Origin: an uncultured Candidatus Poseidoniales archaeon
GTDB taxonomy: Archaea; Thermoplasmatota; Poseidoniia; Poseidoniales; Poseidoniaceae
DNA: 64,000 nt
NCBI GenBank assembly: GCA_964015875.1
Contig: CAXHEV010000003.1
Location: forward strand, 22,947-86,946
Direction of reading: 5' to 3'
The notes under the pieces are model-generated. The model searched no databases, had not been told where the DNA came from, and saw only the letters and a program-made list of their open reading frames with translations. This document shows positions 12,993 through 64,000 of the stretch, one piece after another. Position 1 is the first letter of the stretch; each line of letters begins with the position of its first letter. The translations under genes were made by a program, and so were the position numbers.

Positions 12993-15941
12993 TCAAAGAG
13001 CTTCAAGTTCATCCAAAAGTTCGAGATCGTCATCGTCGTCTTCTTCTAGCACGGGTTCTGGAAGGTCGCTTTCCAATGGTTCGAGTTCCTTCTCATCTTC
13101 GTATTCGAATGTTTCTTCTTCAAAAATTGTACCTGAAGCCTGACCGCGCCTGTAAACTGCAAAGATGAATGCAGCACACAATCCAAGTCCCAAAACAAGC
13201 GTTTGTGGTTCGGGGTTGACCAGTTCGTTAACAAAACAACTGGGGCCTTCGCAGGAGGTTTGGTAAGTCTGTTTGCTGGTTTGTGTAAAATCGCTATCGT
13301 ATGGGACCTCTTCATCCATAGGCGTCACCTTGAGGTCGAATTGCACCGTTTCGCCGTTCTTCAGATTATTTGGCGGGGTGATGGCTAATGAGAAATCTTT
13401 GCTTGAATAAGCAGGGAGGGTCAGCAGCAAGAAACTACCACCTGTCTGGTCGGACGATGCTCGCACGAGAACATCCCAACCTTGTGGCTCATTTTCAAGT
13501 GTGATTACAACATCCAGTGGGATGTTGTTTTGATTATCAATGCTGTATTCGACCGTCTGGAATTCACCCGAGGTGAAACGGACAACTGAGCTGCTTGTGT
13601 CAGTGATTTCGAGACGACCAGGTTGGACATCTTCTCTGACTTGAACAGTCACTGGCAAATCGAAGTATCGGGCATCTTGGGCATCAACACCCTCTTCAAC
13701 AACCCGAACGTAAACAGTGTGGTTTCCTGCTTCCACCTTGTCACCAATGGTCACATCGAGTTTGAGGTCTGCATATTGGTCGGATTCAAGATAAACGACG
13801 ACGATATCGGACTGAGAGCCATTCGAAATGTCGTAGTTCCACGAGCCGTAAGGTGAATCGTCCTCGTTATTTCTGTCGAGGTCTTCTGGATTGATGATTC
13901 GCCATGTGGTTTGGCCAATTGTATCGCTTGAATCAGTGATACGCATCTGATACCACAACGAGGATCCCGGGCTCACTGGACCAACGGTGCCCAGTGTTCC
14001 ACTGTCGGAATCGGCTGTGACCTCGACAAGAACACCAAACGTGCGATGCACTGTGAAGGCAACCGAGGTACTGAGTTCAGAATCACCTTGACTGGCAATA
14101 CTGATGGAAACAAGCCCGATGTCTTGAGCGTCTCGTTCCGATGGTGGGAAGACTTCCATACGAACGGTTAGAATCTGGTGGGAGCCGATATCAGGCGTCA
14201 CTGAGTGGATGCCTTCCTCGACCAACTCAAGTCCTGTTTCGTTGTCATAGAACTTGTATTGCCACGCATCCGGTAGTTCGGTCACGCGCAACTTGAATGC
14301 GTCTGTAATGAATCCAGAATTGAAGACGTCAATGAAGAAATCACCGCTGACATCACCTGAATCCACATAGTGTGATAACAGTTCATCGTAGGCTTCTGGG
14401 CGTGTCGAGTCTGCAATCTGCTTCTGATGTTCATCATCCTCAAACACAGCGATCCTCGGAGGTGAAAGGACGTCGGATTCCTCGACATCGAGGACAATGG
14501 TTTCCACAGCAACTTCCACTGTTTGACCTTCGGTGTTTTCAGCGTAGGCACGCGCCTCGATTTCAAGGGTGTTTGGAGCCGAAGTAAGGTCATCATCTGG
14601 CACTTCAATGCTCAAAATTGGACGAGCAAAAGTACCGCCACCTGAGAGGCTGTAGCCTCCAGGCTGATCCCAAACAGGATCTGACCAGGTTGAGGGCAGC
14701 GAGCGTGAAAGAGAAAACACGACGTCCAATTGAGAGGAACTCGCCCCGGTGTGTTCAATCAAGAATTCAACACTGGAAGTCTGACCGGGTGCAATCAAAA
14801 TGACATCAGGTTGACTTTCAGGGAGCGTCAGGTAGACGTCATGCTCAACGAACTCGATACCGCTGTGTTCAAACACCAAGGTGTGACCTTGAACGTCACT
14901 GATTTCAAGGCGGAGTGGGTATTCTCCAGCAGCGATTCCGGTTTCGTATTGGAAGGTGTAGTTTCCAACTAGGCCGTTGTTGTCGAGCTTCAAATCGTCA
15001 TCATCGAAGGACTTCGAAAAGACCGTCCCGGCTTCGTTCGGTGTTGTCATCACAAGGTCCACGCCTTGGATGTCGTCCCTGCCAAAGGCGTCTCTGACAT
15101 CGACCGAAAACTGCATGTTTCGGAACTCAGGTCGATGTGCAGGCGACCATTCAGTCACCTCTGGTTCTAGGAAACCGCCGCCGGGGCGGTGAACCTTGAC
15201 CACGGAATTTGCAAGTGCGTTTGCTTTCATTTCAAGTTTTGAATACCCGTTGGTTTGTTCAACATCACCGAAAGCAACGTTGACTTCACAATTGCCACCA
15301 CCCAATCCGCCACCGCCACTGCTTTCGCAGGTTGCTTGTGCATCGACGTTGAGCCGGAGTTGTTTCCCGTTGGCCACGGTGAAGCCATCAGAGGGAACGT
15401 CGAAGTCGACAATGGAAGAGGTCCAAGAGCACGAACTCGTACCGAATGTACCACCAGTACACGGATCATCAAGTGTTTCAGAAACGGAATCTACTTCCGA
15501 ATCACCGGACTTGAGTGAGTAGGTAATGTCTGCCGTCGAGCCTTGTGATCCCCTGAATTGAAGGAACAGGGTGAGTGTGACCTTGTCGGTGTTATCTCGA
15601 CCATAGACAAGTAAATCGGAGATCATTTCAGCACTTCTGAATTCAACGCCACCAAAAGCACTGGCTTCTTGGTGGGCACCCGTTGGCTCGAGGGTCGTAA
15701 TCGATCCTTCTCCGCCGCTTTCGCTGTTTGCCTCATCAAGGTAGAGATTGTATGACTGACATGTTGAACATGAAGAAGCTGAGTTCATCTGAACGGTTGA
15801 CTCCTCCAATGTTTCTGCTTCGACAGATTCAACATTTACGCTGGTCTGAAGAGGTGCAACACCGCCCAGCATGATCAAAACGAGCAGGACTGCCAAAAAT
15901 CGGCCATTGGGGGATGAAATTGAAGTCATCAAGGTGTTCAC
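12993..15941 (-). CDS. Large (982 aa) type-I membrane/surface protein with acidic cytoplasmic tail
   Basis: N-terminal signal/anchor helix LAVLLVLIMLGGVAPL. Long beta-rich, Ser/Thr/Asp-rich ectodomain with many N-x-S/T sequons. C-terminal TM helix LVLGLGLCAAFIFAVY followed by RRG. Then an extremely acidic tail (EEETFEYEDEKELEPLESDLPEPVLEEDDDDDLELLDELEAL). Same strand and immediately upstream of the giant gene, with a 92-nt gap. Confidence 0.8.
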   Translation of the reverse strand: MNTLMTSISSPNGRFLAVLLVLIMLGGVAPLQTSVNVESVEAETLEESTVQMNSASSCSTCQSYNLYLDEANSESGGEGSITTLEPTGAHQEASAFGGVEFRSAEMISDLLVYGRDNTDKVTLTLFLQFRGSQGSTADITYSLKSGDSEVDSVSETLDDPCTGGTFGTSSCSWTSSIVDFDVPSDGFTVANGKQLRLNVDAQATCESSGGGGLGGGNCEVNVAFGDVEQTNGYSKLEMKANALANSVVKVHRPGGGFLEPEVTEWSPAHRPEFRNMQFSVDVRDAFGRDDIQGVDLVMTTPNEAGTVFSKSFDDDDLKLDNNGLVGNYTFQYETGIAAGEYPLRLEISDVQGHTLVFEHSGIEFVEHDVYLTLPESQPDVILIAPGQTSSVEFLIEHTGASSSQLDVVFSLSRSLPSTWSDPVWDQPGGYSLSGGGTFARPILSIEVPDDDLTSAPNTLEIEARAYAENTEGQTVEVAVETIVLDVEESDVLSPPRIAVFEDDEHQKQIADSTRPEAYDELLSHYVDSGDVSGDFFIDVFNSGFITDAFKLRVTELPDAWQYKFYDNETGLELVEEGIHSVTPDIGSHQILTVRMEVFPPSERDAQDIGLVSISIASQGDSELSTSVAFTVHRTFGVLVEVTADSDSGTLGTVGPVSPGSSLWYQMRITDSSDTIGQTTWRIINPEDLDRNNEDDSPYGSWNYDISNGSQSDIVVVYLESDQYADLKLDVTIGDKVEAGNHTVYVRVVEEGVDAQDARYFDLPVTVQVREDVQPGRLEITDTSSSVVRFTSGEFQTVEYSIDNQNNIPLDVVITLENEPQGWDVLVRASSDQTGGSFLLLTLPAYSSKDFSLAITPPNNLKNGETVQFDLKVTPMDEEVPYDSDFTQTSKQTYQTSCEGPSCFVNELVNPEPQTLVLGLGLCAAFIFAVYRRGQASGTIFEEETFEYEDEKELEPLESDLPEPVLEEDDDDDLELLDELEAL

Positions 15942-16034
15942 CGTACCGTCCTGTTCAACCGACTGTTAAACGGTTTTGCATTGTTTGTTCGGACAAACCC
16001 CCTCTACGAGGGGGAGGAAGGGGTTGGAATGTAA

Positions 16035-16118
16035 TGCAGGGGGTGGGATACGAACCCACGAACCCATACGGGACCGGATCTTAAGCCCGGCGCCTTTGAC
16101 CACCTCAGCCACCCCTGC
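16035..16118 (-). tRNA. tRNA-Leu (anticodon UAA), no intron, CCA not encoded
   Basis: The reverse complement folds as a canonical class II tRNA:
- Acceptor GCAGGGG/CCCCTGC with discriminator A.
- D arm GCT..GGC.
- Anticodon stem CCGGG/TCCGG with loop CTTAAGA (anticodon TAA).
- Long variable arm CCC-GTAT-GGG.
- T arm GTGGG-TTCGTAT-CCCAC.
Very close to haloarchaeal tRNA-Leu(UAA) from memory. Confidence 0.85.
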
Positions 16119-16168
16119 AGTCGGTCCACAGGACCACATGATTTGAAGAAAACCCCTGCTCAAGTTGC

Positions 16169-17065: not shown

Positions 17066-18094
17066 ATGCCGGGCAAACCACTACCTATGGCGAAGCAACT
17101 CCCACCTGCATTGAGGCCTAAACCAAAGCGTGAACGACTCCCACCATGGTTCAAAACAGCACTTCCATCTGGCGAACAACAGGCTATTTTTAACAGCACG
17201 AAGGCAGCGGTAAAAGACAACACATTGCACACCGTCTGTCAAGAGGCACGCTGCCCGAATATTCACGACTGTTGGGCCAGTGGCGATGCCACCTTCATGA
17301 TTGCAGGACAAGAATGCACCAGAGGGTGCCGATTCTGTGCTGTTGGCACGATCAAGACACCTCCTCCCTTGGATTCTGATGAACCAACCAACCTTGCCAA
17401 TGCTGTCGAATCGATGAACTTGCGACACGCAGTCATTACAGTTGTCAACCGAGATGACCTTCCTGACAGCGGAGCCGACCATTACAAGCAATGCATTCAA
17501 GCCGTCCACGACCGCCAACCACATGTCTCTCTCGAACTGCTCTGCTCGGATTTGGCAGGTGATCATGATGCACTCGCCCATCTCCTCGATGGCAGTCCAC
17601 TTTCCGTCTTCGCTCACAATGTCGAATGTGTCCCCAGGCTCGATGCAACCGTGCGCGACCATCGTGCATCTTTTTCACAATCACTTGAAATCCTAAGAAC
17701 AGCTAAACAACTGCGCCCAGACATCCTCACAAAATCATCGGTCATGGTCGGTGTCGGAGAGACCGATGAAGAAATCACCGAGGTGCTTGGCATGCTCAGA
17801 GAAGCGGGTGTCGATTTGGTAACCATTGGTCAGTACCTTGCACCATCATCCAAACATCTCGCTGTCGACCGCTTTCCGGAACCAGACATGTACGATCAAT
17901 GGGCACAACATGCCATTGCCATTGGATTCTCTGGGATAGCGAGTGGCCCACTGGTTCGGTCCTCGTTCAAGGCTGGACTTTTGCTTAGGAAAACACAAGA
18001 CCCGAACAACTCAGAATCAATGCCAGGAGCATACGTCTATGTGGCCCACCAAGGAAACGAGGCACCGGTACACCTTAAGAGCGGGATGGAATGA
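17066..18094 (+). CDS. lipA: Lipoyl synthase (radical SAM)
   Basis: N-terminal auxiliary-cluster Cys motif (CQEARCPNIHDCW). Radical-SAM CxxxCxxC (CTRGCRFC). Conserved LipA core throughout. Confidence 0.9.
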   Translation: MPGKPLPMAKQLPPALRPKPKRERLPPWFKTALPSGEQQAIFNSTKAAVKDNTLHTVCQEARCPNIHDCWASGDATFMIAGQECTRGCRFCAVGTIKTPPPLDSDEPTNLANAVESMNLRHAVITVVNRDDLPDSGADHYKQCIQAVHDRQPHVSLELLCSDLAGDHDALAHLLDGSPLSVFAHNVECVPRLDATVRDHRASFSQSLEILRTAKQLRPDILTKSSVMVGVGETDEEITEVLGMLREAGVDLVTIGQYLAPSSKHLAVDRFPEPDMYDQWAQHAIAIGFSGIASGPLVRSSFKAGLLLRKTQDPNNSESMPGAYVYVAHQGNEAPVHLKSGME

Positions 18095-18103
18095 GGGGAT
18101 TCA

Positions 18104-19345
18104 ATGACCGAGAGAGTGACAGCCACGACAACGCCGTACACCATCGGCCGTCCACCCTTTCGGCCCGGTGATAAGGCTGACTTTGGTGGTAAATTCAAGG
18201 AACAACCCGGTGATTTGAACCGCCCAGACCCTCTCTCGTGCTCCGCACAAGATACCGTTGACCATGCTGTTGGCTTGGTACGTGTCCTCAATGACGATGG
18301 ACAAGCCAAGGGCGAATGGGATCCAAAGTTGGATGCTGAGACAATGATTCAGGGCCTTGAATACATGATGCGATTACGTATTTTTGATGATCGAATGATC
18401 AAAATGCAGCGCACTGGAAAACTTTCATTCTACATGCGATCTTTTGGAGAAGAAGCCATCGCTATTGCCCAAACAATGGCCCTTGAAACTCAGGATTGGA
18501 TTTTTCCATCCTACCGACAACCCGGTGCACAATTCGTGCGTGGACGGGACATGGTCAGCATGATTTGCCACTGCATCGGTAATACTGAAGACAACGTCAA
18601 GGGACGTCAGATGCCAGTTCACTACACTTGGAAAGAAGGGCGGTTTATCTCCATATCCTCACCTGTTGGCACCCAATTCTCCCAAGCTGTTGGTGTGGCC
18701 ATGGCAAGCGCCTACAAAGGTGATGACGAAGTGTGTATTTCGTGGCTTGGCGACGGTACTTCCGCTCAGGGCGACTATCACTATGCTCTCAATTTCGCCT
18801 CCACCTTCAAGCCTCCAGTCATCCTCAATGTCGTCAACAACCAGTGGGCTATTTCCACTCACGCTAACCTAGCAACTGGCGGACGAACCTTCGCTGAACG
18901 CGGGCTGGCTTACGACATTCCTTCAATTCGAGTGGATGGCAACGATTTCCTCGCACTTTACAGTGTAACAAAGTGGGCTCGAGACCGCGGCGCTGCTGGA
19001 TTAGGTGCCACTCACATCGAGGTCTACACGTACCGTGCAGGTGCCCACTCTTCTTCTGATGACCCATCGGCCTACCGGCCAAATGATGAATTTGAATGCT
19101 GGCCGGGTGGCGACCCGATTGAACGTCTCAAGGATTATTTGATCAAGAACGATATGTGGGATGAAGAACGCAACGCAGCACTCGCTCAGAAAATCGATGA
19201 CGAGGTGATGACATCCTACAAGGCTGCATGCGAATTTGGTGATTTAGCAAGTGGTCCCTATCCGCCCGCATCGACTATTTTCACTGAAGTGTACGAAACT
19301 GTACCATGGCATGTTCAAGAACAACGAGAGGAACTTGGTAAGTGA
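18104..19345 (+). CDS. 2-oxoacid dehydrogenase E1 component alpha subunit (TPP-dependent; pyruvate/branched-chain type)
   Basis: TPP-binding E1-alpha fold motifs (GDGTSAQGDYHYALNFAS, YRAGAHSSSDDPSAYR). Followed directly by the E1-beta, E2 and E3 genes. Confidence 0.9.
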   Translation: MTERVTATTTPYTIGRPPFRPGDKADFGGKFKEQPGDLNRPDPLSCSAQDTVDHAVGLVRVLNDDGQAKGEWDPKLDAETMIQGLEYMMRLRIFDDRMIKMQRTGKLSFYMRSFGEEAIAIAQTMALETQDWIFPSYRQPGAQFVRGRDMVSMICHCIGNTEDNVKGRQMPVHYTWKEGRFISISSPVGTQFSQAVGVAMASAYKGDDEVCISWLGDGTSAQGDYHYALNFASTFKPPVILNVVNNQWAISTHANLATGGRTFAERGLAYDIPSIRVDGNDFLALYSVTKWARDRGAAGLGATHIEVYTYRAGAHSSSDDPSAYRPNDEFECWPGGDPIERLKDYLIKNDMWDEERNAALAQKIDDEVMTSYKAACEFGDLASGPYPPASTIFTEVYETVPWHVQEQREELGK

Positions 19346-19353
19346 GGTGGCGA

Positions 19354-20366
19354 TGATGGCAGACATGAACATGATCAAAGCACTGAACTCCGCCCTTGAA
19401 GTTCAACTAGAGAAGGACCCAAACATCGTCATTTTTGGTGAAGACGTCGGTTTCTTTGGTGGTGTTTTCCGCGTCACTGATGGATTACAGAAAAAATTCG
19501 GTGAACACCGTGTGTTTGACTCCCCTCTTGCCGAAGGTGGCATTGCTGCAATCGCCATGGGTATGGGTTTGAACGGACTTCGTCCTGTTGCAGAAATTCA
19601 ATTTGCCGACTACATCTTCCCGGCGTATGACCAAATTGTCAATGAAATTGCCAAAGTTCGTCACCGCTCTGGTGGCGAATTTACGGCCCCACTCACCTTC
19701 CGCACCCCGGCTGGTGGAGGCATCAAGGGCGGTCATCATCACTCGCAATCACCTGAAGCACAATTCACTCACACACCTGGTTTGAAAGTCGTCTATTGTT
19801 CAAACCCCTACAACGCGAAGGGCTTGTTGACTGCGGCGATTGAATGCAATGACCCAGTCATCTTCTTTGAACCAAAGCGATGCTACCGCGGCCCATTTTA
19901 CGGCGACCCACACAACGTACCAACATGGTCCGGACACCCAGATGCTGAAGTGCCAGAAGGTCACTTCATCGTCCCACTTGAAGAGGCTCGTGTTGTTCGA
20001 GAAGGTGAAGCTTGCACGGTGATTGCTTGGGGTACAATGGTCCACGTCTGCGAGCAAGCGATCAAGGATTCTGGTGTTGACTGTGAACTGATTGACTTGC
20101 AAACGCTGGTTCCTTGGGACCGTGATACTGTGGTCAACTCCATCAAGAAGACCGGACGATGTGTTATTGTCCATGAAGCTCCAAAGACAAGTGGGTTTGG
20201 CGCCGAGATGAGCGCTTCGATTCAAGAGCGCTGCTTCTACCATCTTGAAGCACCAATCACTCGCGTGACAGGTTGGGACACACCCTTCCCTCACACAACG
20301 GAATGGGATTATCTTCCTAGTCCAGAACGAATTGCAGAAGCAATAAAGAAAACACAGGAGGAATGA
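19354..20366 (+). CDS. 2-oxoacid dehydrogenase E1 component beta subunit
   Basis: Transketolase-like beta subunit (MNMIKALNSALE..., VFRVTDGLQKKFGEHRVFDSPLAEGGI). Track ORF 19251..20366 overlaps E1-alpha; the ATG at 19354, just after the E1-alpha stop, is the likely start. Confidence 0.9.
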
Positions 20367-21655
20367 ATATGGGAACATTTGCATTTAAAATGCCAGATAT
20401 CGGAGAAGGCGTCGTCGAAGGCGAAGTTGTAGAATGGATGGTCGCCGTTGGAGACACCGTCAAAGAAGATGATCCAATTCTCTCAGTGATGACCGACAAA
20501 GCAACCGTAGAAATCCCATCACCAGTTGATGGTACTGTCACCAAAGTTGTCGGTGAAGCCGGTGATATCCTCCCTGTTGGTGTCGTGTGCATTGAATTCG
20601 AGGTCGATGGTGCTGGAAACGCATCCGCTTCTGAAGAAGCACCTGCGAAGAAAGCCGCTCCAGAACCAAAGGAAGAACCAACACCTGCTCCAGCAGAACC
20701 CGCACCTGCACCTGCCCCAGCACCTGCTCCAGCCGAGGCACCTGCTGCTGCCCCAGTGGCCCGTGCACCTGGGACTAAGGCGCTTGCCAGCCCTGCAGTA
20801 CGACAGCGAGCGCGAGAAGCAAACATCAGCCTCGACCATGTTGCCGGATCCGGTCCTGGCGGTCGAATCAGTCATGCTGATTTAGACGCCCACATCGCTG
20901 GAGGTGCCTCTGGAGCAAGTCGAGCACGTCCGATGGGTGGTCGTGCACGAACTGAACTCAATGGGACCGAGACCATGAAGGTCATTGGACTGCGCCGCAA
21001 GATTGCAGATTCTATGATTGCATCCTACTCAACCATACCTCACTTCTCGTACTTCGAGGAAGTGGATGTGACTGCACTTGAAGAACTCCGCCAACACCTC
21101 AACGCAACTCGACCGGAAGGTGCTCCAAAACTTACCTACTTGCCTTTCATTATGCAAGCGCTTGTCAAGGCACTTGCTGAGCGCCCAGAGTGCAACGCAC
21201 TCTACGATGACGAAGCAAATGTGGTTACTCGACACGAAGCGATTAACCTCGGCATCGCTACGCAAACTGACCGTGGATTGTTCGTCCCAGTTGTCAAGCA
21301 CGTTGAAGCGATGGACATCTGGCAATCTGCCACAGAAATGGTTCGCGTCACTGGCGCAACCCGTGAAGGCAAGGCCGGAGTGGAAGACCTCAGTGGTTCC
21401 ACCTTCACAATCACCAGCCTTGGACGACTCGGGGGACTTGGTGCGACACCAATAATCAACAAGCCTGAAGTTGGCATCCTTGGAGTCCACAACGCCACGG
21501 ATCGAGCTGTGGTTCGAAACGGCTCAGTCGTCATTCGCCGAATGATGAACCTCTCATCCTCATGGGACCATCGCGTTGTCGACGGTCACGACGGAGCAAG
21601 CTTGGTTCAATTGGTCAAAACATACCTAGAGAATCCAGCTACAATTTTCATGTGA
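20363..21655 (+). CDS. Dihydrolipoamide acyltransferase (E2) of the 2-oxoacid dehydrogenase complex
   Basis: N-terminal lipoyl domain (lipoyl-Lys context SVMTDKATVEIPSP). Pro/Ala-rich flexible linker. Peripheral subunit-binding domain (LASPAVRQRAREANISL). C-terminal catalytic domain with DHRVVDG. 4-nt overlap with E1-beta (ATGA). Confidence 0.9.
   Translation: MNMGTFAFKMPDIGEGVVEGEVVEWMVAVGDTVKEDDPILSVMTDKATVEIPSPVDGTVTKVVGEAGDILPVGVVCIEFEVDGAGNASASEEAPAKKAAPEPKEEPTPAPAEPAPAPAPAPAPAEAPAAAPVARAPGTKALASPAVRQRAREANISLDHVAGSGPGGRISHADLDAHIAGGASGASRARPMGGRARTELNGTETMKVIGLRRKIADSMIASYSTIPHFSYFEEVDVTALEELRQHLNATRPEGAPKLTYLPFIMQALVKALAERPECNALYDDEANVVTRHEAINLGIATQTDRGLFVPVVKHVEAMDIWQSATEMVRVTGATREGKAGVEDLSGSTFTITSLGRLGGLGATPIINKPEVGILGVHNATDRAVVRNGSVVIRRMMNLSSSWDHRVVDGHDGASLVQLVKTYLENPATIFM
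20690..20760 (+). repeat. Tandem low-complexity repeat encoding the (PA)n/(APA)n interdomain linker of E2
   Basis: The stretch gcacctgcacctgccccagcacctgctccagcc gives EPAPAPAPAPAPAEAPAAAP. It explains the spurious antisense and alternate-frame ORFs in the track at 20317..20885. Confidence 0.6.
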
Positions 21656-21667
21656 GGTTTGATTGAT

Positions 21668-23098
21668 ATGGAGACAAAAAAGTGTCAAGTTCTCGTCATC
21701 GGCGCCGGCCCTGGCGGCTACGTGGCCGCTATTCGTGCAGGTCAACTCGGCCTCAAAACCATCATTGTTGAAGGGGAAAAAGCAGGAGGTACGTGCCTCA
21801 TTCGTGGATGCATTCCATCAAAAGCCCTCATCCATGCAGCCCACAAGTTCCATGATTTGGCAAAGCATGCTGCAAAGGATGGTCACATGGGCATCTCGAT
21901 ACCAGGTCCTGCAGAACTCAACATGGCAGACCTCATTGGATGGAAAGAAAACATCGTTAATCGCCTTAACAAAGGAGTCGAACATCTTCTCAAGAATGCA
22001 GGAGCGGAATTGATTACCGGATGGGCAGAATTTCAGGACGCAAAAACTGTCAAAATTGGTGAAGGAAAAGATGCGATAATCGTCCAAGCCGATCATGTCA
22101 TCCTAGCGAATGGTTCAGTTCCAATTGAATTGCCATTCATGCCTTACGATGAGCATGTTATTTCCTCTCGAGAGGCACTTTCTCTCGAAAACCTACCCGA
22201 TCATGTAGCGATTGTTGGCGGCGGCTACATTGGGCTCGAACTTGGCATCACCTTCCGCATGCTCGGTTCAGAGGTCACTGTTGTTGAAGCAATGGACAGT
22301 GTCTTGCCAATCTTCGATAAGGAACTTCGTCGACCACTTGAAATCGCTATCAAGAAGCAGAAAATCAAGACCCACCTCGGCGTGTTTGCAAAGGGAACTG
22401 AAGCAACAAAGGACGGACGTGTTCAACTCAACTTCATCGATAAAAACGAAAAAGATGACAAAAAAATGCAACATGTCGTTGTCGACAAAGTGCTTGTGAC
22501 CGTCGGACGAAAACCAAACTCTGCGTCGCTTGCACCAACTGGCGTTGCGCTCGATGAACGAGGTTTCGTCAAGGTCAACGACCGTTGTGAAACCAACATG
22601 AAGGGTGTCTATGCCATTGGTGACGTGTGCAACTCTGGCGAAATGCTTGCCCACGTTGCATCCTTCCAAGGAGAGATGGTTGCTGAAATCATTGCAGGTA
22701 AGAAGCGCGCTTACGACCCTGTAGCCGTTCCAGCGATTGTCTTTACTGAACCCGAAATTGTCTCTGTAGGATTATCACCTGAAGAAGCAAAGGCTGCTGG
22801 CCATCCGGTCATCATCGGTAAGTTCCCTCTTGGTGCAAACGGTCGAGCTCTTACTCAAGAAGCTGAGAAATCTGCAGGATTCATTCGGGTCTGCGCTCGT
22901 GAGGACGATCATCGAATCTTAGGCATTCAAGGCGTTGGAACTCATATCAGTGAGTTGGTAGGCGAATGGACACTCGCCCTCGAAATGGGTGCGTTGCTCG
23001 AAGATATCGCAGGCACCATCCACGCCCACCCCACCATGACTGAAATGACCCACGAAGCCGTCTTGGCGACCTTGGGTCATGCTATCCACTCAGCATGA
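21668..23098 (+). CDS. lpdA: Dihydrolipoamide dehydrogenase (E3)
   Basis: FAD-binding GAGPGG. Redox-active disulfide GGTCLIRGCIPSK. NAD-binding GGGYIGLE. C-terminal HAHPTMTE dimerisation/His-Pro motif. Track start 21659 is a TTG; the ATG at 21668 follows GAGGT. Confidence 0.9.
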   Translation: METKKCQVLVIGAGPGGYVAAIRAGQLGLKTIIVEGEKAGGTCLIRGCIPSKALIHAAHKFHDLAKHAAKDGHMGISIPGPAELNMADLIGWKENIVNRLNKGVEHLLKNAGAELITGWAEFQDAKTVKIGEGKDAIIVQADHVILANGSVPIELPFMPYDEHVISSREALSLENLPDHVAIVGGGYIGLELGITFRMLGSEVTVVEAMDSVLPIFDKELRRPLEIAIKKQKIKTHLGVFAKGTEATKDGRVQLNFIDKNEKDDKKMQHVVVDKVLVTVGRKPNSASLAPTGVALDERGFVKVNDRCETNMKGVYAIGDVCNSGEMLAHVASFQGEMVAEIIAGKKRAYDPVAVPAIVFTEPEIVSVGLSPEEAKAAGHPVIIGKFPLGANGRALTQEAEKSAGFIRVCAREDDHRILGIQGVGTHISELVGEWTLALEMGALLEDIAGTIHAHPTMTEMTHEAVLATLGHAIHSA

Positions 23099-30940: not shown

Positions 30941-31588
30941 ATGGTCCAACTGAGGCATGTCGAGGTTTCTCACCTCGGGACCACCCCTTACCTTGAAGCC
31001 ATGGAATTGATGAAAACCTTACAAGCCAAGCGAATCAATGATGAAATACCTGACACATTGCTCATCCTAGAACATCCAGAAATTGTTACGGTTGGTCCTA
31101 GAGCCCGCAACGATGGTATAGCCCCGCCTGAGGACTACGCGTCCCAAGCGGTGGATCGCGGAGGTGGACTTACCTGGCATGGACCGGGCCAAATTGTGGC
31201 CTATCCAATTTTCAAATGGAATTACGATGATGAAAAATCGGTTGCATTCATCATCGAAAAAATCGAAGCATGGGTTATTCGAGCGTTGGACAAGGTTGGA
31301 ATCCGTGGCGCACGCGATGAGCGAATGCAAGGCGTATGGGTCAAGGGAAGGAAGATCTGTAGCATTGGCCTTTCTTTTTTGAGATGGACATCGAGGCATG
31401 GCTTCACCATTAACCTCAACACACCAGAAGGCCGAGTTGAGGGGATTGCCGGTTGTGGGCTTGAACAAGCAACAACCACATCACTCTCTGTTCTTGGCTA
31501 TGACGTTTCAAATGAAGCAATGGTTTCTTCACTTCTCACAACAATGGGAGAAAGTCTTCAAAGAAGCCCGATAGAATCTGCTCTATAG
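30941..31588 (+). CDS. lipB: Octanoyl-[acyl-carrier-protein]:protein N-octanoyltransferase (lipoate-protein ligase B)
   Basis: LipB signature LLILEHPEIVTVG ... DRGGGLTWHGPGQIVAYPI ... KICSIGL (catalytic Lys/Cys). Confidence 0.8.
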   Translation: MVQLRHVEVSHLGTTPYLEAMELMKTLQAKRINDEIPDTLLILEHPEIVTVGPRARNDGIAPPEDYASQAVDRGGGLTWHGPGQIVAYPIFKWNYDDEKSVAFIIEKIEAWVIRALDKVGIRGARDERMQGVWVKGRKICSIGLSFLRWTSRHGFTINLNTPEGRVEGIAGCGLEQATTTSLSVLGYDVSNEAMVSSLLTTMGESLQRSPIESAL

Positions 31589-58621: not shown

Positions 58622-60544
58622 TTAATCTCCCCCAGTCATCTCATCTGTTGGTACGATGAAATCCAAAGCCGTTGGGTCTTCTATGGCGACAAGTCCACGG
58701 ATGCTATGTGCATCTTGAAGTTCAACTGTTGGCTGTGCAACCTTGACTCTTGTAACTCCGAGAGAAAGCACGTGACCTGGACTCACTGGTAGTCGACCTT
58801 CTGGTAACCAAAGACCAAGAGCGCCCATTTCACCATGATGCACGATGATGAGGGTATGCCCATGCTCATCAATTTCAGAACGAACAACTCGCATGGATTC
58901 GCCAGATGGAATCAACCGTTCACTGCTTTGCCAATCGTTCCAAGTGTCTTCCAATGGTTTGTTTTGTAGATTTGCAAGTTCATCTATAGCCTCAATTTTC
59001 TCGGTGAAGGCTTGTTCTTTCTCAGCAGCGATTGCATTCAATCCATCGAGGAGATCTCGCAATCCTTCATGATGCAGTGCATCGATTTTGGTCATTGCAG
59101 CATGAGCCATCACCATAAGATCTGCTAGGGATTCGATGTCAGCCTCACTGCCAGATTCTAGGGCACACTCCATCCCTTCATCAAGAATTTCAAGAGCAAG
59201 ACCTGGTTGGTCAATCGATAGCAATGAAGTCCCTATGGCCTTCAAAGATAGGGTTGCGGCAGACTTGTCTTCAATCACATATTCGCGAGCGGTCGCAATG
59301 TGGTGCTTTGCCACATCGAAATCATGATTCAAGTGTCGAGTGACCCCTGAGAGCACGAGGTATCGAAGTCTCTGGCTTCCTGTGGATTGGGCTTGGCGAT
59401 CTGCGGTCTCAAACAACCTTGCTGCTCGGGCCCAATCATCTGAACTTGTTGCGAGCAAACCGAGTTGGTGCATGCCATGCATCTCAGCAAACTCGTCATC
59501 GATCAGGGTCGCTGCTTGAAGGGCTCTTGAGAGGTGGAGGCGGGCTGCAACACGGTCGCCCGACATCTTCGACATCAATCCAAGTGCAGTCTCTGTACGT
59601 TGAACAAAACCAGCAAGAGCAGTGTTGGCCAATTCTGCATCCTTTTCACCAAGCGGGGCAAGACCCAAACCAACCGCTTCTAAGGCCTCACTGTAGGCGA
59701 GCATCGTTGTTCGATAAGCACCTTCAACGTCGTTTGAATAGGCTGTACTTGACAGGTTTGAGAGATGCTGATCTAATCCTGACATAGGAGCGCATATCTC
59801 AGGTAGTGCGCCAAGGGACTTCAGGTGTTTCCCCTTGATTTGCTCACCATTCAAGGTTCGACGCAATGCAGTAGAGAGGACTTCTTCAGCAGGTGAAGTC
59901 TCTTCTTTCTTCGTGGGTGTAGGTTGTGCTTTTGGACTGTTGATCAAGGAATCAACCATCCATGTCAATTTCGCTTGGATATCATATTCATTGACTCGAC
60001 TAATGGCGTACCTCATTTCTGCCGCTCTAATCCGTCGAGAGAGACTATTGAACGCAGATTTTGACTTCACGGATGAGAGCTCAGCGAGTCGTTGCATGAA
60101 GGTTGAAGGTGGGCATGTTGTGTAGCCAAGATTAGCCTTCTCGCTCGTGGTAGTCATCTTGAAATCGTCAGTCACCAACACCACTGTTTTCCCTTCACGA
60201 GTCAATTTCGATGCAAGCACCATAAGCGATAAGTCAACATCTTGAGGTGATGCTTTCTCGCCAATAAGTTGCGCTAAGCCTCTGATTTGAGCGTCATCAA
60301 CAGGTACTGTTGTGAGGATATCTTCGAGAGCATCTAAGAGGAGGGGTTTCTTTTTCCAGCGTTGAAAACGTACGGTTCGAACCTCACCATGTACGCCTGG
60401 AGTTACATAGAACGTATGCCTTGACGCATGCGTCATGGCCTTGATGTCTTTTAGAAACCGATCTGCAGCATAGGAGCCAAGGTGAATGAAGCAATTCGAA
60501 TCAATGACCCATGTATGACTCATCGATGCCTTGTCATAGCCCAA
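58622..60544 (-). CDS. PIN-domain protein fused to TPR-like helical repeats and a C-terminal beta domain
   Basis: PIN acidic residues in VIDSNCFIHL, VTPGVHGEV and VVLVTDDF. ~350 aa of Ala/Leu-rich helical hairpins. C-terminal ~90 aa beta-rich. No Zn ribbon, so not canonical Nob1. Confidence 0.6.
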   Translation of the reverse strand: MGYDKASMSHTWVIDSNCFIHLGSYAADRFLKDIKAMTHASRHTFYVTPGVHGEVRTVRFQRWKKKPLLLDALEDILTTVPVDDAQIRGLAQLIGEKASPQDVDLSLMVLASKLTREGKTVVLVTDDFKMTTTSEKANLGYTTCPPSTFMQRLAELSSVKSKSAFNSLSRRIRAAEMRYAISRVNEYDIQAKLTWMVDSLINSPKAQPTPTKKEETSPAEEVLSTALRRTLNGEQIKGKHLKSLGALPEICAPMSGLDQHLSNLSSTAYSNDVEGAYRTTMLAYSEALEAVGLGLAPLGEKDAELANTALAGFVQRTETALGLMSKMSGDRVAARLHLSRALQAATLIDDEFAEMHGMHQLGLLATSSDDWARAARLFETADRQAQSTGSQRLRYLVLSGVTRHLNHDFDVAKHHIATAREYVIEDKSAATLSLKAIGTSLLSIDQPGLALEILDEGMECALESGSEADIESLADLMVMAHAAMTKIDALHHEGLRDLLDGLNAIAAEKEQAFTEKIEAIDELANLQNKPLEDTWNDWQSSERLIPSGESMRVVRSEIDEHGHTLIIVHHGEMGALGLWLPEGRLPVSPGHVLSLGVTRVKVAQPTVELQDAHSIRGLVAIEDPTALDFIVPTDEMTGGD

Positions 60545-60569: not shown

Positions 60570-60968
60570 CTACGGAGTAAGACTCGGGAAAATACAGACT
60601 TCAGGCTGCGAGAAGAATTTCATTCGATACTTAGCAACAATTCTGTACACCACATTACGAAGGGGGAGAGGTACAATCCAAGCAAAGGGGAAGAGAATCC
60701 GATAGTGCCATTTGAGATAGAGCAAGCACCGGATGGCTGCTGATGATCGCATGTATGGTTGACCATTGCGTAGGAGGTAAACCGTATCAGCATCTTGAAA
60801 TTTTTGCGGGAATTTAGCAATGATTGAGCGTCCCTCTTCACTTTCTATAGCGATAAACTTCATACTTTGAGGATCCCGTAAACGGGGGTGGAGAAACACC
60901 GCAGAGCGCGTGCATAGACCACAATCGCCATCCATTAAGAGAATGTCAGAATCACTCATCAATTCCAC
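60570..60968 (-). CDS. Thiol-disulfide oxidoreductase DCC (DUF393) family
   Basis: ILLMDGDCGLCTRSAVFL, i.e. D-C-x-x-C near the N-terminus. ~130 aa. Confidence 0.7.
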   Translation of the reverse strand: MELMSDSDILLMDGDCGLCTRSAVFLHPRLRDPQSMKFIAIESEEGRSIIAKFPQKFQDADTVYLLRNGQPYMRSSAAIRCLLYLKWHYRILFPFAWIVPLPLRNVVYRIVAKYRMKFFSQPEVCIFPSLTP

Positions 60969-61755
60969 CCTCCATTGGTAGCAAGTGCCACGTCACAACA
61001 TTAACACCTTCCGACATGTGCATCAGTTCGGGTTTAGTAGCATCCTGAATCCCGAGGTTGTAGCTTTCAACGAGGGTATTTTGCTGAACCTCTGCAATAG
61101 CATCTGCATACCACCATTTGCTATGGTGAGTGTAGCCGTGATGCAGTCGGCCTTTGTGAATGGTGTACAAGCTGTATCTTTCGAACAGGAAGTATTCGAG
61201 TGAACCTTCCTGAGCCTGCTTTAATTCTGAGCACTTCTTTGCAAACCCTTTGAGGCCAACGCCGCCTCTTGAACGACTGGATGACCAGGTGTATCCTTGA
61301 TCCAATGTGCCTTTGACGAAGGCTTTGGCATATCGGTAAGCAAGACCATACTTCCATTTGGCATAGAAGCAAGTGACCCGACTTTTAGCATCTAAGGTCA
61401 AAAAAAAGACACCTGGGACTCCATTTTTCTTAACGTAGGTCCTGATATTGAATTCACCAAACGTCGAGACGCCTGGGACTGGAGGCAAAGGATAAGGCCG
61501 TACATTTTCCATCACGAATGGGATGCATCCAATGTAGGCTTTCCCATGATGCAAATCAATTTCCAACCCGTCTGGCAGATGGTGACGAAGGATGTCAGGG
61601 TCAACCTCCCAATGGAGGAACGTGAGTTTTTTCCAGTTCTGCCTCAAGATCCAACGGCTCTCAGGCATAGGAAATGGAATGTGGTCCACAGCAAGACCAT
61701 CCTTCCTTGTGACCATGTTGGTCCATCGAGGCGAAGGTCTTGAACCATCCCTCAT
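60952..61755 (-). CDS. DUF2071 (COG3361, YqjF-like) family protein
   Basis: LTFLHWEVDPDILRHHLPDGLEIDLHHGKAYIG matches the conserved block of DUF2071 from memory. Overlaps DCC by 17 nt. Confidence 0.55.
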   Translation of the reverse strand: MRDGSRPSPRWTNMVTRKDGLAVDHIPFPMPESRWILRQNWKKLTFLHWEVDPDILRHHLPDGLEIDLHHGKAYIGCIPFVMENVRPYPLPPVPGVSTFGEFNIRTYVKKNGVPGVFFLTLDAKSRVTCFYAKWKYGLAYRYAKAFVKGTLDQGYTWSSSRSRGGVGLKGFAKKCSELKQAQEGSLEYFLFERYSLYTIHKGRLHHGYTHHSKWWYADAIAEVQQNTLVESYNLGIQDATKPELMHMSEGVNVVTWHLLPMEGGIDE

Positions 61756-62229
61756 CTATTCCAGTGATTCCAGTGAACTGGAAGCAATGGTATCCACACG
61801 TCCACCATCACCCCAAGTTGCAGCAATTCCAACCGCACAACCTAACGGTGCCATCATCATGCAAAGGATGAGCACCGGTGTCGAGACATACATCGGTCGC
61901 TTCATAGCCACCATTCGCAACCAAATAAACCGCCCAAGAAACATATCAAAGGCTAGGTAGTGCAACCAGCCGAGGATGATGACGTCTTCATCAGCAAACA
62001 GATCAATGACAATCTGGGGTGTTGGCATATCGCTTCCAAGTGCAAGTAAAATAGTACTTACTTGAGGCAATACCACGATGATGTATGGTACAAGAAGTGG
62101 TAAGAAGCAATACCGAAGATCACCAACAAAACGGCGCGTCAAATGATGTTCTGGTAAGAACCACATCAACACCCAAAATGGAAGAATCCACACCGATGAA
62201 AACCAAAACATAACTTCTGTTAATTCCAT
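61756..62229 (-). CDS. Hypothetical membrane protein (possibly ABA4-like/DUF4281)
   Basis: 157 aa, four hydrophobic helices. Abuts the DUF2071 gene with no gap. Family assignment tentative. Confidence 0.45.
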   Translation of the reverse strand: MELTEVMFWFSSVWILPFWVLMWFLPEHHLTRRFVGDLRYCFLPLLVPYIIVVLPQVSTILLALGSDMPTPQIVIDLFADEDVIILGWLHYLAFDMFLGRFIWLRMVAMKRPMYVSTPVLILCMMMAPLGCAVGIAATWGDGGRVDTIASSSLESLE

Positions 62230-62231
62230 AC

Positions 62232-64000
62232 TTATTCCTCTTCATTCATAGCAGAGATATAACGCTGCGCATCGGTTCTCAAAAAGCGGGCATAGAAAGC
62301 AGGTAAAATCACCAAGCTTGAAAGGAGAGCTAAAGCGATCGCCACAACAAAAGCCTGTCCAAACAATCTCAATGGGAGGAGTGAGGAGAGATTTAGCACA
62401 GCAAATCCACCAGCAGTGGTCAGCGCAGCCATCCACATTGCCCGACCAGTCGTTGCCGATGCGTTAGCGACCCAGTGGTGAGGATCAGCGAACGGGTTGT
62501 GTTCGACTTCCTCTTCCAAACGAATTGAAAAATGGACTGCGTAATCGACACCAAGGCCCAAGGAAAGAGCTCCGATGGTGACAGTTTGTGAATTGATTTG
62601 GTAGCCGGTGAAGCCCATTAATCCATACACCCATACAACCACCATCATCAGTGGTATCCAAGACACAAACCCTCGAGAAGCACCTTGAACCAAATCCTTC
62701 TGCCGAACAGTGTGAATGCCAATCAACATCATCAAAATGACGACGGCAACAACACCCGTGGACAGGATGGCTGAATCAGCTACGTCTGAAGTCGTCTGAG
62801 CAAGGATCAGGCTTCTTCCACCAACACGGAGATCAGCGTCACCCTCCAAGCCTTCTTCTGCCGATTCCAGCGAATCGATCATCCGCTGATTGAGATTGAT
62901 GGTTGCTTGCCAGTCAAGGGTTTCTGCTTGGAATGAAAGTACGGTTTGTTTGCCGTCGGAAGCGAGCACGGAGGAACTGAGGTCCCTACCTTCTGGCGTC
63001 TCAAGCAAGTATGTTGCGAGTTCGTCCCATGTCGATTGATTGGCATCGTCGAGTTGGCTCATCAATCCGTTGAGCATCGAATCTCGAACTTGAGCTTCAG
63101 CCAGTACATTCCACAATCCGCTGGGTGTCCCACTGACATCTGGGCTCTCAAGCAGCACCTGTTCTGCGGCAAGCCATGCCGCGTAGCCATCGGGAGTGAA
63201 GACTTCTACATCAACCACGACATACAATGGTGATCTGCTGTTTTGGAACTCATCTGATAACAGCAAAAAGTCGCCGACAACTGGAACCTCCTCATCGAAT
63301 TGGTCTCGTTGATCAAAACCAACTTCCAATTGTTGGAAACCGATAAACATCGGGGCCAACAACAAGACAGCGATGACACCAACCTTCGTTGGAGTCGCAG
63401 AAAGCCGAGCAAGCCGGTTCGCAATTGGACCAATTTCGATAGAACTGGCTTTTTCAAGTTTGAGTTTTTTCGGAGGGAACATCAGCATCAACGCTGGAAG
63501 TGCAGTAATACTGAGCAGATAAACGAGGAAGAGGCCGATGGCAATCACTGTTCCAAACACTTGGAGGAAGGACAAAGAGGAGAATCTGAAGGAAAGGAAC
63601 CCGACCATATCGGTAAAGATTGCAATCACGAGGGCAATCGAAGTCAAGACGGTCCCTCGGCGGACTGCAACTTGCCTTGCTTCATATGAGAAATCCTTCA
63701 ATGTGGCTCGTTCTATATCGTCTTTAGAATCGATTAAATTCAATTCTTCCCGAATCCTAATCACGACGTGGAGACCATAATCCACACCAATTGCTAGTAA
63801 GAGAACCGGAATTGAATTCATGGCGGCGTTGAACACCATATTGACACCAAAGAATTGCAGCCAACCAGAAAAGCCGTATGTGGCCACAATAGCAAGGACC
63901 GTTAGCGAAGTGACGAATGCGGTGTCACGCACAGAACGGAAATTGAACCACAAAATGACTGCGAGAAGCAATAATGCAGCGCTTGTCAACGTGCCAATTT
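62232..64000 (-). CDS. RND-superfamily MMPL-type exporter (partial; N-terminus beyond window end)
   Basis: Sterol-sensing-like TM bundle (LLLAIGVDYGLHVV). A large extracytoplasmic loop. A second TM bundle (LSLGLGVDYAVHF). Frame open to the window edge, so the true start is upstream of 64000. Confidence 0.75.
   Translation of the reverse strand, partial: IGTLTSAALLLLAVILWFNFRSVRDTAFVTSLTVLAIVATYGFSGWLQFFGVNMVFNAAMNSIPVLLLAIGVDYGLHVVIRIREELNLIDSKDDIERATLKDFSYEARQVAVRRGTVLTSIALVIAIFTDMVGFLSFRFSSLSFLQVFGTVIAIGLFLVYLLSITALPALMLMFPPKKLKLEKASSIEIGPIANRLARLSATPTKVGVIAVLLLAPMFIGFQQLEVGFDQRDQFDEEVPVVGDFLLLSDEFQNSRSPLYVVVDVEVFTPDGYAAWLAAEQVLLESPDVSGTPSGLWNVLAEAQVRDSMLNGLMSQLDDANQSTWDELATYLLETPEGRDLSSSVLASDGKQTVLSFQAETLDWQATINLNQRMIDSLESAEEGLEGDADLRVGGRSLILAQTTSDVADSAILSTGVVAVVILMMLIGIHTVRQKDLVQGASRGFVSWIPLMMVVVWVYGLMGFTGYQINSQTVTIGALSLGLGVDYAVHFSIRLEEEVEHNPFADPHHWVANASATTGRAMWMAALTTAGGFAVLNLSSLLPLRLFGQAFVVAIALALLSSLVILPAFYARFLRTDAQRYISAMNEEE

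Follow-up and report, generated by a model that had tools for sequence, protein, structure and literature searches.

Four co-directional genes of an uncultured marine archaeon form two separable, evolutionarily independent two-gene modules. One encodes an RND-superfamily transporter and an ABA4-like (DUF4281) membrane protein, and the other a DUF2071 protein and a DCC-family CxxC protein. The modules look like they were joined by a single rearrangement. The best explanation of the cluster, held tentatively, is an operon that would handle and export an isoprenoid or polyene lipid with both modules in one unit.

Poseidoniales are among the most abundant surface-ocean archaea and have never been cultured, and conserved operons provide a rare route to their physiology. 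The cluster gives genetic context to DUF2071, DCC/DUF393 and ABA4-like/DUF4281, three widespread and poorly understood families. The analyzed window is a 64,000-nt stretch of DNA from an uncultured Candidatus Poseidoniales archaeon of the Poseidoniaceae (Marine Group II), and the names of homologues likewise indicate a Poseidoniales/Poseidoniaceae host. The following features were identified:

62232 to >64000, minus strand: RND-superfamily (MMPL/HAE3-like) transporter, C-terminal 588 codons; the gene runs past the window.
62236 to 62240, minus strand: GAGGA Shine-Dalgarno-like motif, 6 nt 5' of the ABA4-like ATG and within the RND 3' end.
61756 to 62229, minus strand: ABA4-like (DUF4281) membrane protein, 157 aa; Pfam PF14108.
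60952 to 61755, minus strand: DUF2071 protein, 267 aa (254 aa from ATG 61716); Pfam PF09844.
60570 to 60968, minus strand: DCC1-like (DUF393) CxxC protein, 132 aa (129 aa from ATG 60959); Pfam PF04134.
58622 to 60544, minus strand: possible fifth operon gene, 640 aa, co-directional, 25 nt after the DCC stop.

Open reading frames and junctions agree with the original prediction of four packed minus-strand genes. The RND to ABA4-like junction reads TAA, gt, ATG, a 2-nt gap (+2). The ABA4-like TAG abuts the DUF2071 ATG (gap 0). DCC starts inside DUF2071, giving an overlap of 17 nt if translation begins at GTG 60968 and of 8 nt if it begins at ATG 60959. The true DUF2071 start may be ATG 61716, as called in relatives, and the gap would then become 39 nt; the initial 20 residues of the DUF2071 model have low confidence. 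Packing had been taken to imply co-translation, but the genome is compact. About 95% of the window is coding; the median same-strand gap is 9 nt, and 12 of 27 such junctions span ≤5 nt. The tight packing of the four genes is no more than chance in such a genome.

The family calls made earlier for MMPL, DUF2071 and DCC all held, each above its Pfam gathering score. The RND fragment matched MMPL (PF03176) with 80 bits against a cutoff of 20.5 (E = 2e-22) and also matched a Patched SSD domain. Its frame stays open up to the window edge. The full-length protein in a relative (L001) is ~926 aa and is identical to the window fragment at 583 of 588 residues; relatives' RND genes carry the PF03176 annotation. 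Topology was read from Kyte-Doolittle hydropathy only. The 926-aa relative starts with one TM segment, followed by a loop of ~300 aa, a first TM bundle, a loop of ~185 aa and another TM bundle. Two large outside loops and two TM bundles fit a 12-TM (1+5 / 1+5) RND arrangement, of which a strict threshold resolves 9 peaks. By NCBIfam scores, HAE3 (TIGR00921) is the closest relative at 159–173 bits, below its cutoff of 351.9, and the protein belongs to no named equivalog. HpnN equivalogs scored 70 bits against 752 and 50 against 1100, BstA 36 against 1400 and MmpL3 27 against 1400.

Named comparators are the mycobacterial MmpL-MmpS pairs, the hopanoid transporter HpnN and the sterol transporter BstA. 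They share the two large outside loops and the MMPL and Patched-SSD matches with the archaeal RND protein. Their clusters likewise hold a small membrane-protein gene translationally linked to the pump and lie near lipid- and acyl-CoA-type genes. The archaeal protein, however, falls far under every named equivalog cutoff, is partnered by an ABA4-like 4-helix protein instead of MmpS, and resides in a monoderm host.

The small membrane protein had been considered uncharacterized; it belongs to the ABA4-like family (PF14108, 82 bits against 27, E = 6.5e-23, profile positions 2–124 of 127). Hydropathy indicates three strong hydrophobic helices and one amphipathic helix, and the motif W-L-H-x-L-A-F-D-x-F-x-G-R is conserved. 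GGAGG or GAGGA is found at the equivalent site before the ABA4-like gene in L001, L007, L091, L010 and L112. The literature found on DUF4281 is plant and algal work only. Plant ABA4 is needed to form neoxanthin and (9-)cis-violaxanthin, a genetic role known from plants alone (PMC8151144). Its biochemical activity is unproven and it fails in E. coli (PMC12317632), and the enzymatic activity itself is not established (PMC8770946, PMC12317632). Like its plant and algal counterparts, the archaeal protein matches the complete PF14108 domain and is a small membrane protein of several helices. Unlike them, it is operonic with an RND pump, and Poseidoniales are not known as makers of epoxy-xanthophylls. 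How ABA4 acts enzymatically in making neoxanthin and ABA precursors is a long-standing question of plant carotenoid biology, to which its prokaryotic partners are relevant.

The DUF2071 protein matched PF09844 with 193 bits against 27 (E = 6.6e-57, profile positions 1–211 of 212). PDB sequence searches with it, single or profile, gave no meaningful match, nor did those with DCC and the ABA4-like protein. An exact-match look-up of the window DUF2071 was empty, and a relative with 95% identity was used instead. Structure prediction, which had been proposed for this protein, gave an AlphaFold2 model with pLDDT 93 and pTM 0.88. The best 24 Foldseek matches in PDB were all enzymes of the acetoacetate decarboxylase (ADC) superfamily (E 6e-13 to 7e-10, probability 1.0, TM ~0.6). 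DUF2071 is confidently predicted to have an ADC-like beta-cone fold that lacks the catalytic lysine. It shares the beta-cone with ADC, MppR, Sbi00515 and Swit_4259 and retains the central-strand Glu of the superfamily (PMC4520260), but identity is only 10–15% and a sequence-level match to solved members is absent even by profile.

Schiff-base-forming Lys115 of C. acetobutylicum ADC is without a counterpart in DUF2071. No column exceeded 26% Lys in an alignment of 50 diverse sequences, in agreement with PMC4520260. The genome scan took an alignment of 17 sequences as query, since the 50-sequence one was too diverse. Without the lysine, the chemistry of DUF2071 must differ from that of ADC, and the protein may use an old scaffold for new chemistry. 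Its conserved polar set comprises H48, D67, E101-x-N103-x-R105-x-Y107, D122, Y140, E192-R193-Y194 and H211. Elsewhere DUF2071 is fused to an MpaB/Lcp-type oxygenase and to CrtI-like NAD_binding_8/amine-oxidase domains. The literature found on the family is a fold-assignment study.

DCC matched PF04134 with 63.9 bits against 27.8 (E = 4.1e-17), and no TM segment was predicted. Like 73 of 76 partners, the window protein carries DGDCGLC; DxxCxxC occurs in 75 of the 76. By family, DCC is predicted to act as a thioredoxin-type thiol-disulfide oxidoreductase. A model of a natural DUF2071-DCC fusion has thioredoxin-like secondary-structure order with the CxxC at a helix N-terminus; its DCC half is of low confidence (pLDDT 50–60), and it was used for no domain-interface inference. 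The Pfam threshold and DxxCxxC are common to other DCC1-like/DUF393 proteins (Arabidopsis DCC1, AT1G52590, bacterial YuxK, HTTM-DCC fusions). Here, in contrast, DCC is a near-obligate neighbor or fusion partner of DUF2071, an arrangement found only in Poseidoniales.

Synteny was compared across 175 related loci. DUF2071 and DCC are neighboring or fused genes in 25 of 26 loci that represent Poseidoniales species, and the pair occurs in at least nine different neighborhoods. Natural fusions of ~376 aa are encoded in many Poseidoniales and preserve the order DUF2071 then DCC. RND lies directly upstream of the ABA4-like gene in 71 of 79 classifiable ABA4-centered loci (~90%), spanning three contexts. 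Type A is the full four-gene cassette and is found in 17 lineages at 90% identity; type B is RND-ABA4 alone; type C is RND, two small genes and ABA4, with different upstream genes. In type D (five lineages) the RND ORF is cleanly missing and ABA4-DUF2071-DCC follow the same promoter element. A near-obligate DUF2071-DCC partnership, fusions included, and an RND-ABA4-like partnership are thus defined as contexts; neither was found in the literature searched. Bacterial DUF2071 neighbors are heterogeneous (SDR in 11 loci), and none of 52 bacterial loci has DCC, ABA4-like or RND nearby. Neighbors are also unrelated at the MGIII (L034), Ca. Poseidonia alphae (L015) and Marinimicrobia (L035) loci.

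The original prediction of a conserved cassette staked on synteny elsewhere and HMM support stands in that type A is syntenic in 17 lineages and the proteins score above Pfam cutoffs. As a single unit it does not stand, because it resolves into two pairs that adjoin only in one Poseidoniaceae clade, that of the window. In this clade the entire ~15-kb neighborhood is syntenic, and with an apparent single rearrangement this makes adjacency weak evidence of shared function. Coincidental neighbors, two real functional pairs that serve unrelated processes and are adjacent and co-transcribed in one clade, are a substantial possibility. Each pair is found without the other in many Poseidoniales lineages and contexts (types B and C; DUF2071-DCC-only loci), the surrounding genes are as well conserved as the cassette, and same-strand gaps are short throughout. 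At L012 the thiolase is directly followed by DUF2071-DCC, with RND and ABA4 gone as a unit. Type D argues against coincidence, since it loses RND yet keeps the ABA4-like gene with DUF2071-DCC behind a retained promoter in five lineages. So does type C, where a second, unrelated CxxC protein lies inside the RND-ABA4 cluster; thiol-redox partners recur, which suggests that such a function is wanted beside ABA4/RND. Each family also has independent isoprenoid-lipid hints (PMC12587418; DUF2071 domain fusions). The type C CxxC protein is a lipoprotein with a sub-threshold thioredoxin assignment and, unlike DCC, is predicted to be extracytoplasmic.

Promoter motifs are consistent with one operon. 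A TATAWA box at -28/-29 of the RND ATG is conserved in clades A and B, which supports a single transcript, and the TATA element upstream of RND is kept in the RND-deleted type D loci. No conserved TATA was found before DUF2071, DCC or the 640-aa gene, and none lies between DCC and the 640-aa gene. The four genes most likely share one promoter, judging from these motifs. Every type A and type D locus has the 640-aa gene behind DCC, but DUF2071-DCC loci elsewhere lack it. Its product has no significant Pfam or PDB match; the N-terminal ~200 aa are highly conserved and show a PIN-like acidic pattern, by motif only.

In clade A a thiolase gene directly precedes the cluster, and in L012 it abuts DUF2071-DCC. 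DUF2071-DCC could accordingly serve the thiolase in acetoacetyl-CoA, mevalonate or leucine/isoprenoid catabolism, with RND-ABA4 inserted. The ADC fold of DUF2071 fits this proposal, as does the clade C RND cluster, which comes after carboxyltransferase, enoyl-CoA hydratase, biotin carboxylase and BCCP genes. We consider it improbable, since the lysine that defines ADC-type chemistry is missing family-wide (PMC4520260), the DUF2071-DCC neighborhoods without a thiolase number at least nine, and an intergenic region with its own TATA box divides the thiolase from the cluster.

RND pumps are often drug exporters. The cluster could encode general efflux or detoxification. The RND protein would then be a multidrug or solvent exporter without a particular lipid cargo, and the accompanying redox proteins would repair or detoxify electrophiles. 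CxxC proteins are frequent in oxidative-stress defense, and the type C CxxC lipoprotein has a distant homologue next to a peroxiredoxin. Such a role is unlikely, as the best RND matches are to the lipid-moving HAE3, MMPL, HpnN and BstA and to the sterol-sensing-type Patched domain rather than to HAE1 drug pumps. Drug pumps are not strictly paired with ABA4-like proteins, and the cluster has none of the regulators that typify efflux operons.

In the preferred lipid-handling operon, the region would be the 3' two-thirds of one archaeal transcription unit. In the window's clade one TATA box ~29 nt upstream of the RND start would drive both modules, so that the modifying pair and the membrane pair would be made together. 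The first gene would have a short leader or none, and a Shine-Dalgarno-like motif would serve the internal ABA4-like gene. The membrane module would combine a 12-TM RND protein of the lipid-moving HAE3/MMPL/HpnN type with the 4-helix ABA4-like protein. The latter may be a dedicated RND partner that binds or isomerizes a polyene/isoprenoid lipid in the membrane and hands it to, or takes it from, the pump. In the cytoplasmic module, DUF2071 and the CxxC thioredoxin-like protein would act as one unit. The beta-cone would form a ligand pocket in which the conserved polar set replaces the Schiff-base lysine, and the pair would potentially be a thiol-dependent isomerase, reductase or lyase on a hydrophobic carbonyl/polyene compound.

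The likeliest role would be to process an isoprenoid-derived lipid and either export it or place it in the membrane, with a carotenoid, apocarotenoid or prenyl-quinone as candidate cargo. The isoprenoid theme of the original prediction is plausible because RND is nearest to HAE3/HpnN/BstA/MmpL3, ABA4 is a carotenoid-pathway family and DUF2071 is fused to oxidase domains. The modification-export function proposed with it, including physical partnership, substrate class, transport direction, chemistry and a common substrate of the modules, we infer from these relationships, whereas gene structure, family membership, fold, lysine loss, modular synteny, fusion and the promoter motif were established here. 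Poseidoniales transcribe crtI and crtD (PMC9723583), and no carotenoid genes are within the window. A xanthophyll-antenna role tied to rhodopsins was dropped, as Poseidoniia rhodopsin pumps are reported to bind no carotenoid antennas (PMC12137139).

A more speculative extension, which we regard as a long shot, is that ABA4-like proteins, instead of being enzymes in their own right, are membrane subunits that act together with a thiol-redox partner (DCC/CxxC), plus a lipid pump in prokaryotes, and that DUF2071-DCC is a new thiol-dependent polyene/isoprenoid isomerase/lyase. If so, the operon would reveal a "missing component" that explains why plant ABA4 makes no neoxanthin in E. coli. A candidate for the plant partner would then be AT1G52590, a DCC protein of the plastoglobule core (PMC12587418).

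Other genes at the related loci were also compared. By hhalign, the two small type C genes show no remote homology to DUF2071, DCC or ABA4 (probability <2%). A lipoprotein-ABA4 fusion was seen in a single case (P0387) on one contig; it could be a frameshift and was given little weight. In type B, ABA4 is followed by a ~780-aa gene for a secreted YHYH/TSP3 protein; this gene is unrelated to the 781-aa one that precedes DUF2071 in L006-type loci.

The minus-strand cluster at the window's end comprises four ORFs, located as the original prediction placed them:

60570–60968, minus strand: DCC
60952–61755, minus strand: DUF2071
61756–62229, minus strand: ABA4-like membrane protein, 157 aa
From 62232, minus strand: RND gene, frame open to the window edge

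Reading the DNA directly, the RND stop codon TAA is separated from the next ATG by "gt", and the TAG of the small membrane-protein gene abuts the DUF2071 ATG. The DUF2071–DCC overlap is 17 nt if DCC starts at its GTG and 8 nt if it starts at the ATG at 60959. Gene calls in close relatives put the DUF2071 start at the ATG at 61716, which could apply here too. In the same direction, a fifth ORF (58622–60544, minus strand; 640 aa) begins 25 nt past DCC. Tight packing had been taken as a sign of co-translation, but the window's median same-strand gap is 9 nt, with 12 of its 27 same-strand junctions at ≤5 nt and ~95% of the sequence coding. Because such packing is normal here, spacing alone provides no evidence of coupling. 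Homologues carry the names Candidatus Poseidoniales or Poseidoniaceae, and the remainder of the window encodes archaeal housekeeping functions (aRF1, class I LysRS, NOG1-type GTPase, RNR, and a 2-oxoacid dehydrogenase complex). The host is a Marine Group II archaeon.

Families were judged against Pfam gathering thresholds and curated NCBIfam cutoffs. The predicted MMPL, DUF2071, and DCC assignments all exceed the Pfam thresholds. The RND protein matches MMPL (80 bits; cutoff 20.5) and also has a Patched sterol-sensing-type match. It is nearest the HAE3 subfamily in NCBIfam, with HpnN, BstA, and MmpL3 weaker and all four scores far under the curated cutoffs. By these matches, it is a predicted RND/MMPL-type transporter of the lipid-moving branch, outside every named equivalog. 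A relative's protein (locus L001), identical to the window fragment at 583/588 positions, supplies the full length sought earlier, 926 aa with a typical RND layout. The small four-TM protein, initially considered uncharacterised, is ABA4-like (PF14108/DUF4281, 82 bits; cutoff 27) over nearly the whole profile. The ABA4 family has a genetic role in xanthophyll conversion (PMC8151144), and the literature treats its enzymatic function as unsettled (PMC8770946, PMC12317632).

DUF2071 scores 193 bits (Pfam cutoff 27), and its family numbers ~4,800 clusters at 50% identity. The structure prediction originally proposed (AlphaFold2, 50-sequence alignment) gave a confident model (pLDDT 93, pTM 0.88). 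All 24 significant Foldseek matches in the PDB belong to the acetoacetate-decarboxylase (ADC) superfamily, including MppR, Sbi00515, ADC, and Swit_4259, with TM scores of about 0.6 and 10–15% identity; sequence and profile searches with DUF2071 had found no ADC-superfamily structure. The fold is shared, but the defining Schiff-base lysine of ADC is missing (at most 26% Lys in any alignment column), in agreement with PMC4520260. Nearly invariant polar residues are H48, D67, D122, Y140, E192-R193-Y194, and H211, along with E101-x-N103-x-R105-x-Y107, a stretch lying on a single strand. DUF2071 appears to be an enzyme, or a specific binder, whose chemistry differs from that of ADC. Among homologous proteins from the representative search (P0185, P0189, P0186), DUF2071 occurs in tandem, and it is also fused to an MpaB/Lcp-type oxygenase catalytic domain or to CrtI-like NAD_binding_8/amine-oxidase domains. 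Fused domains of the latter two kinds typically take part in the oxidation of isoprenoids or polyenes.

The DCC protein matches DCC1-like (63.9 bits; Pfam cutoff 27.8) and has no predicted TM segment. Among 76 DCC partners, 73 have DGDCGLC and 75 have DxxCxxC. Only the DUF2071 half of a DUF2071–DCC fusion model was confident, and therefore no interface can be derived from it. Plastoglobules are a plastid compartment for prenyl-lipid and carotenoid metabolism. In plants, the DCC-family protein AT1G52590 belongs to the plastoglobule core (PMC12587418, PMC13533914).

Searches of Pfam, NCBIfam, and the PDB matched nothing to the 640-aa protein. Strong conservation over its N-terminal ~200 aa includes an acidic pattern resembling that of PIN domains (D8, E47, D95/D97, T118-D119-D120); the rest of the chain appears helical.

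HMMs of the window's own proteins were used to score neighbours in 80 species-representative loci around DUF2071 and 80 metagenome loci around the ABA4-like gene, with targeted look-ups added. RND lies directly 5′ of the ABA4-like gene in 71 of 79 classifiable loci. In 25 of 26 Poseidoniales loci, DUF2071 and DCC are either fused or next to each other, and these pairs span at least nine different neighbourhoods; many of the proteins are natural fusions of about 376 aa. Four architectures were distinguished.

Architectures around the RND, ABA4-like, and DUF2071–DCC genes (lineages de-replicated at 90% identity)
Type A, 17 lineages: RND–ABA4–DUF2071–DCC–640 aa (the window's type)
Type B, 11 lineages: RND–ABA4 only
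Type C, 3 lineages: RND–181 aa–CxxC lipoprotein–ABA4, behind acyl-CoA carboxylase genes
Type D, 5 lineages: thiolase–ABA4–DUF2071–DCC–640 aa, without RND

The cluster is thus two modules, not one cassette. The predicted four-gene order does recur in the 17 type A lineages, but as two separable pairs, and none of 52 bacterial DUF2071 loci, whose neighbours are heterogeneous, has DCC, ABA4-like, or RND genes nearby, even at lax thresholds. In the window's Poseidoniaceae clade (clade A), the entire ~15-kb neighbourhood is syntenic, so order there is not very informative. In one locus (L012), thiolase is followed directly by DUF2071–DCC, without RND or ABA4. The main rival explanation, not much less likely, is that the modules are unrelated neighbours. 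Type D loci nest near type A, at up to 85% identity, and the 640-aa gene is 3′ of DCC in all loci of both types.

In clades A and B, a TATAWA box with an "aaCAC" element ahead of it lies 28–29 nt 5′ of the RND start codon, with equivalents in L007, L091, L010, L112, and L131. In L001, the box occupies a position that would fall just past the window's end:

L001, 6676–6681: TATAAA, at −29 relative to the RND start codon (ATG at 6705)

This element fits an archaeal promoter for a putative leaderless or short-leader transcript. The same element is ~31 nt 5′ of the ABA4 ATG in RND-less type D loci (L143, L145, L150, L151), implying that the pump gene was cleanly excised and the promoter left in place. 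A GGAGG/GAGGA motif lies 5′ of the internal ABA4 start, and no conserved TATA box was found 5′ of DUF2071, DCC, or the 640-aa gene. Promoter and transcript are read at the level of motifs.

One transcription unit joining the two modules is the best-supported reading. The membrane module would pair a lipid-type RND pump with an ABA4-like partner, and the cytoplasmic module a Lys-less ADC-fold DUF2071 protein with the CxxC redox partner DCC. The RND relatives, the xanthophyll role of ABA4, the DUF2071 fusions, the plastoglobule DCC protein, and the expression of crtI and crtD in Poseidoniales (PMC9723583) hint that the compound handled is an isoprenoid or polyene lipid. We infer substrate, chemistry, transport direction, and coupling between modules, and offer everything past architecture and fold as hypothesis. 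The literature searched gave no description of an RND–ABA4-like or DUF2071–DCC partnership, only a fold assignment for DUF2071, and plant and algal work alone on DUF4281. We rate the cluster as a putative RND lipid-transporter operon whose accessory genes are without precedent.

Type C loci, from another Poseidoniales clade, contain two unannotated genes between RND and the ABA4-like gene:

L089, 6818–8011; L168, 6788–7995; L171, 6782–7989: 181-aa multi-TM gene and ~207-aa lipobox gene

The ~207-aa protein has an invariant WVAxGC(S/N)GCHDW and a downstream TPT motif. It may adopt a thioredoxin-like fold, with sub-threshold matches to Thioredoxin_2 (2/5 members, E = 0.005) and disulphide isomerase (E = 0.59). 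Its family (615 matches, none with a Pfam domain) is abundant in Poseidoniales and does not always adjoin RND–ABA4. Recurrence of a thiol-redox partner beside RND/ABA4 is suggestive but weak.

Genes 5′ of the RND cluster include thiolase in clade A (L001:5371–6591) and carboxyltransferase, enoyl-CoA hydratase, biotin carboxylase, and BCCP in clade C (L090:1–3860). Both sets have ties to acetoacetyl-CoA/HMG-CoA-type metabolism, a curious point in view of the ADC fold of DUF2071. In type B loci L112 (8504–10861) and L148 (2038–5010), the following gene codes for a large protein that carries YHYH and thrombospondin type 3 repeat domains, sometimes with an FSH1 serine-hydrolase domain. One group of DUF2071–DCC-only loci (L006:5663–8008; also L016, L019, L021, L036) encodes a 781-aa protein without a Pfam match that has a signal peptide and ~7 TM segments and overlaps the DUF2071 start. 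Elsewhere in the window, a giant 2995-aa ORF (3913–12900, minus strand) combines transglutaminase-core, Ig-like, CarboxypepD_reg, bacterial TSP3, and DUF4129 domains, and next to it comes a 982-aa ORF (12993–15941, minus strand) without a family match; both products are probably cell-surface proteins. Lipoyl synthase, 2-oxoacid dehydrogenase E1, E2, and E3, and lipoate-protein ligase cluster at 17066–23098 and 30941–31588, and a tRNA-Leu(TAA) is located at 16034–16119.
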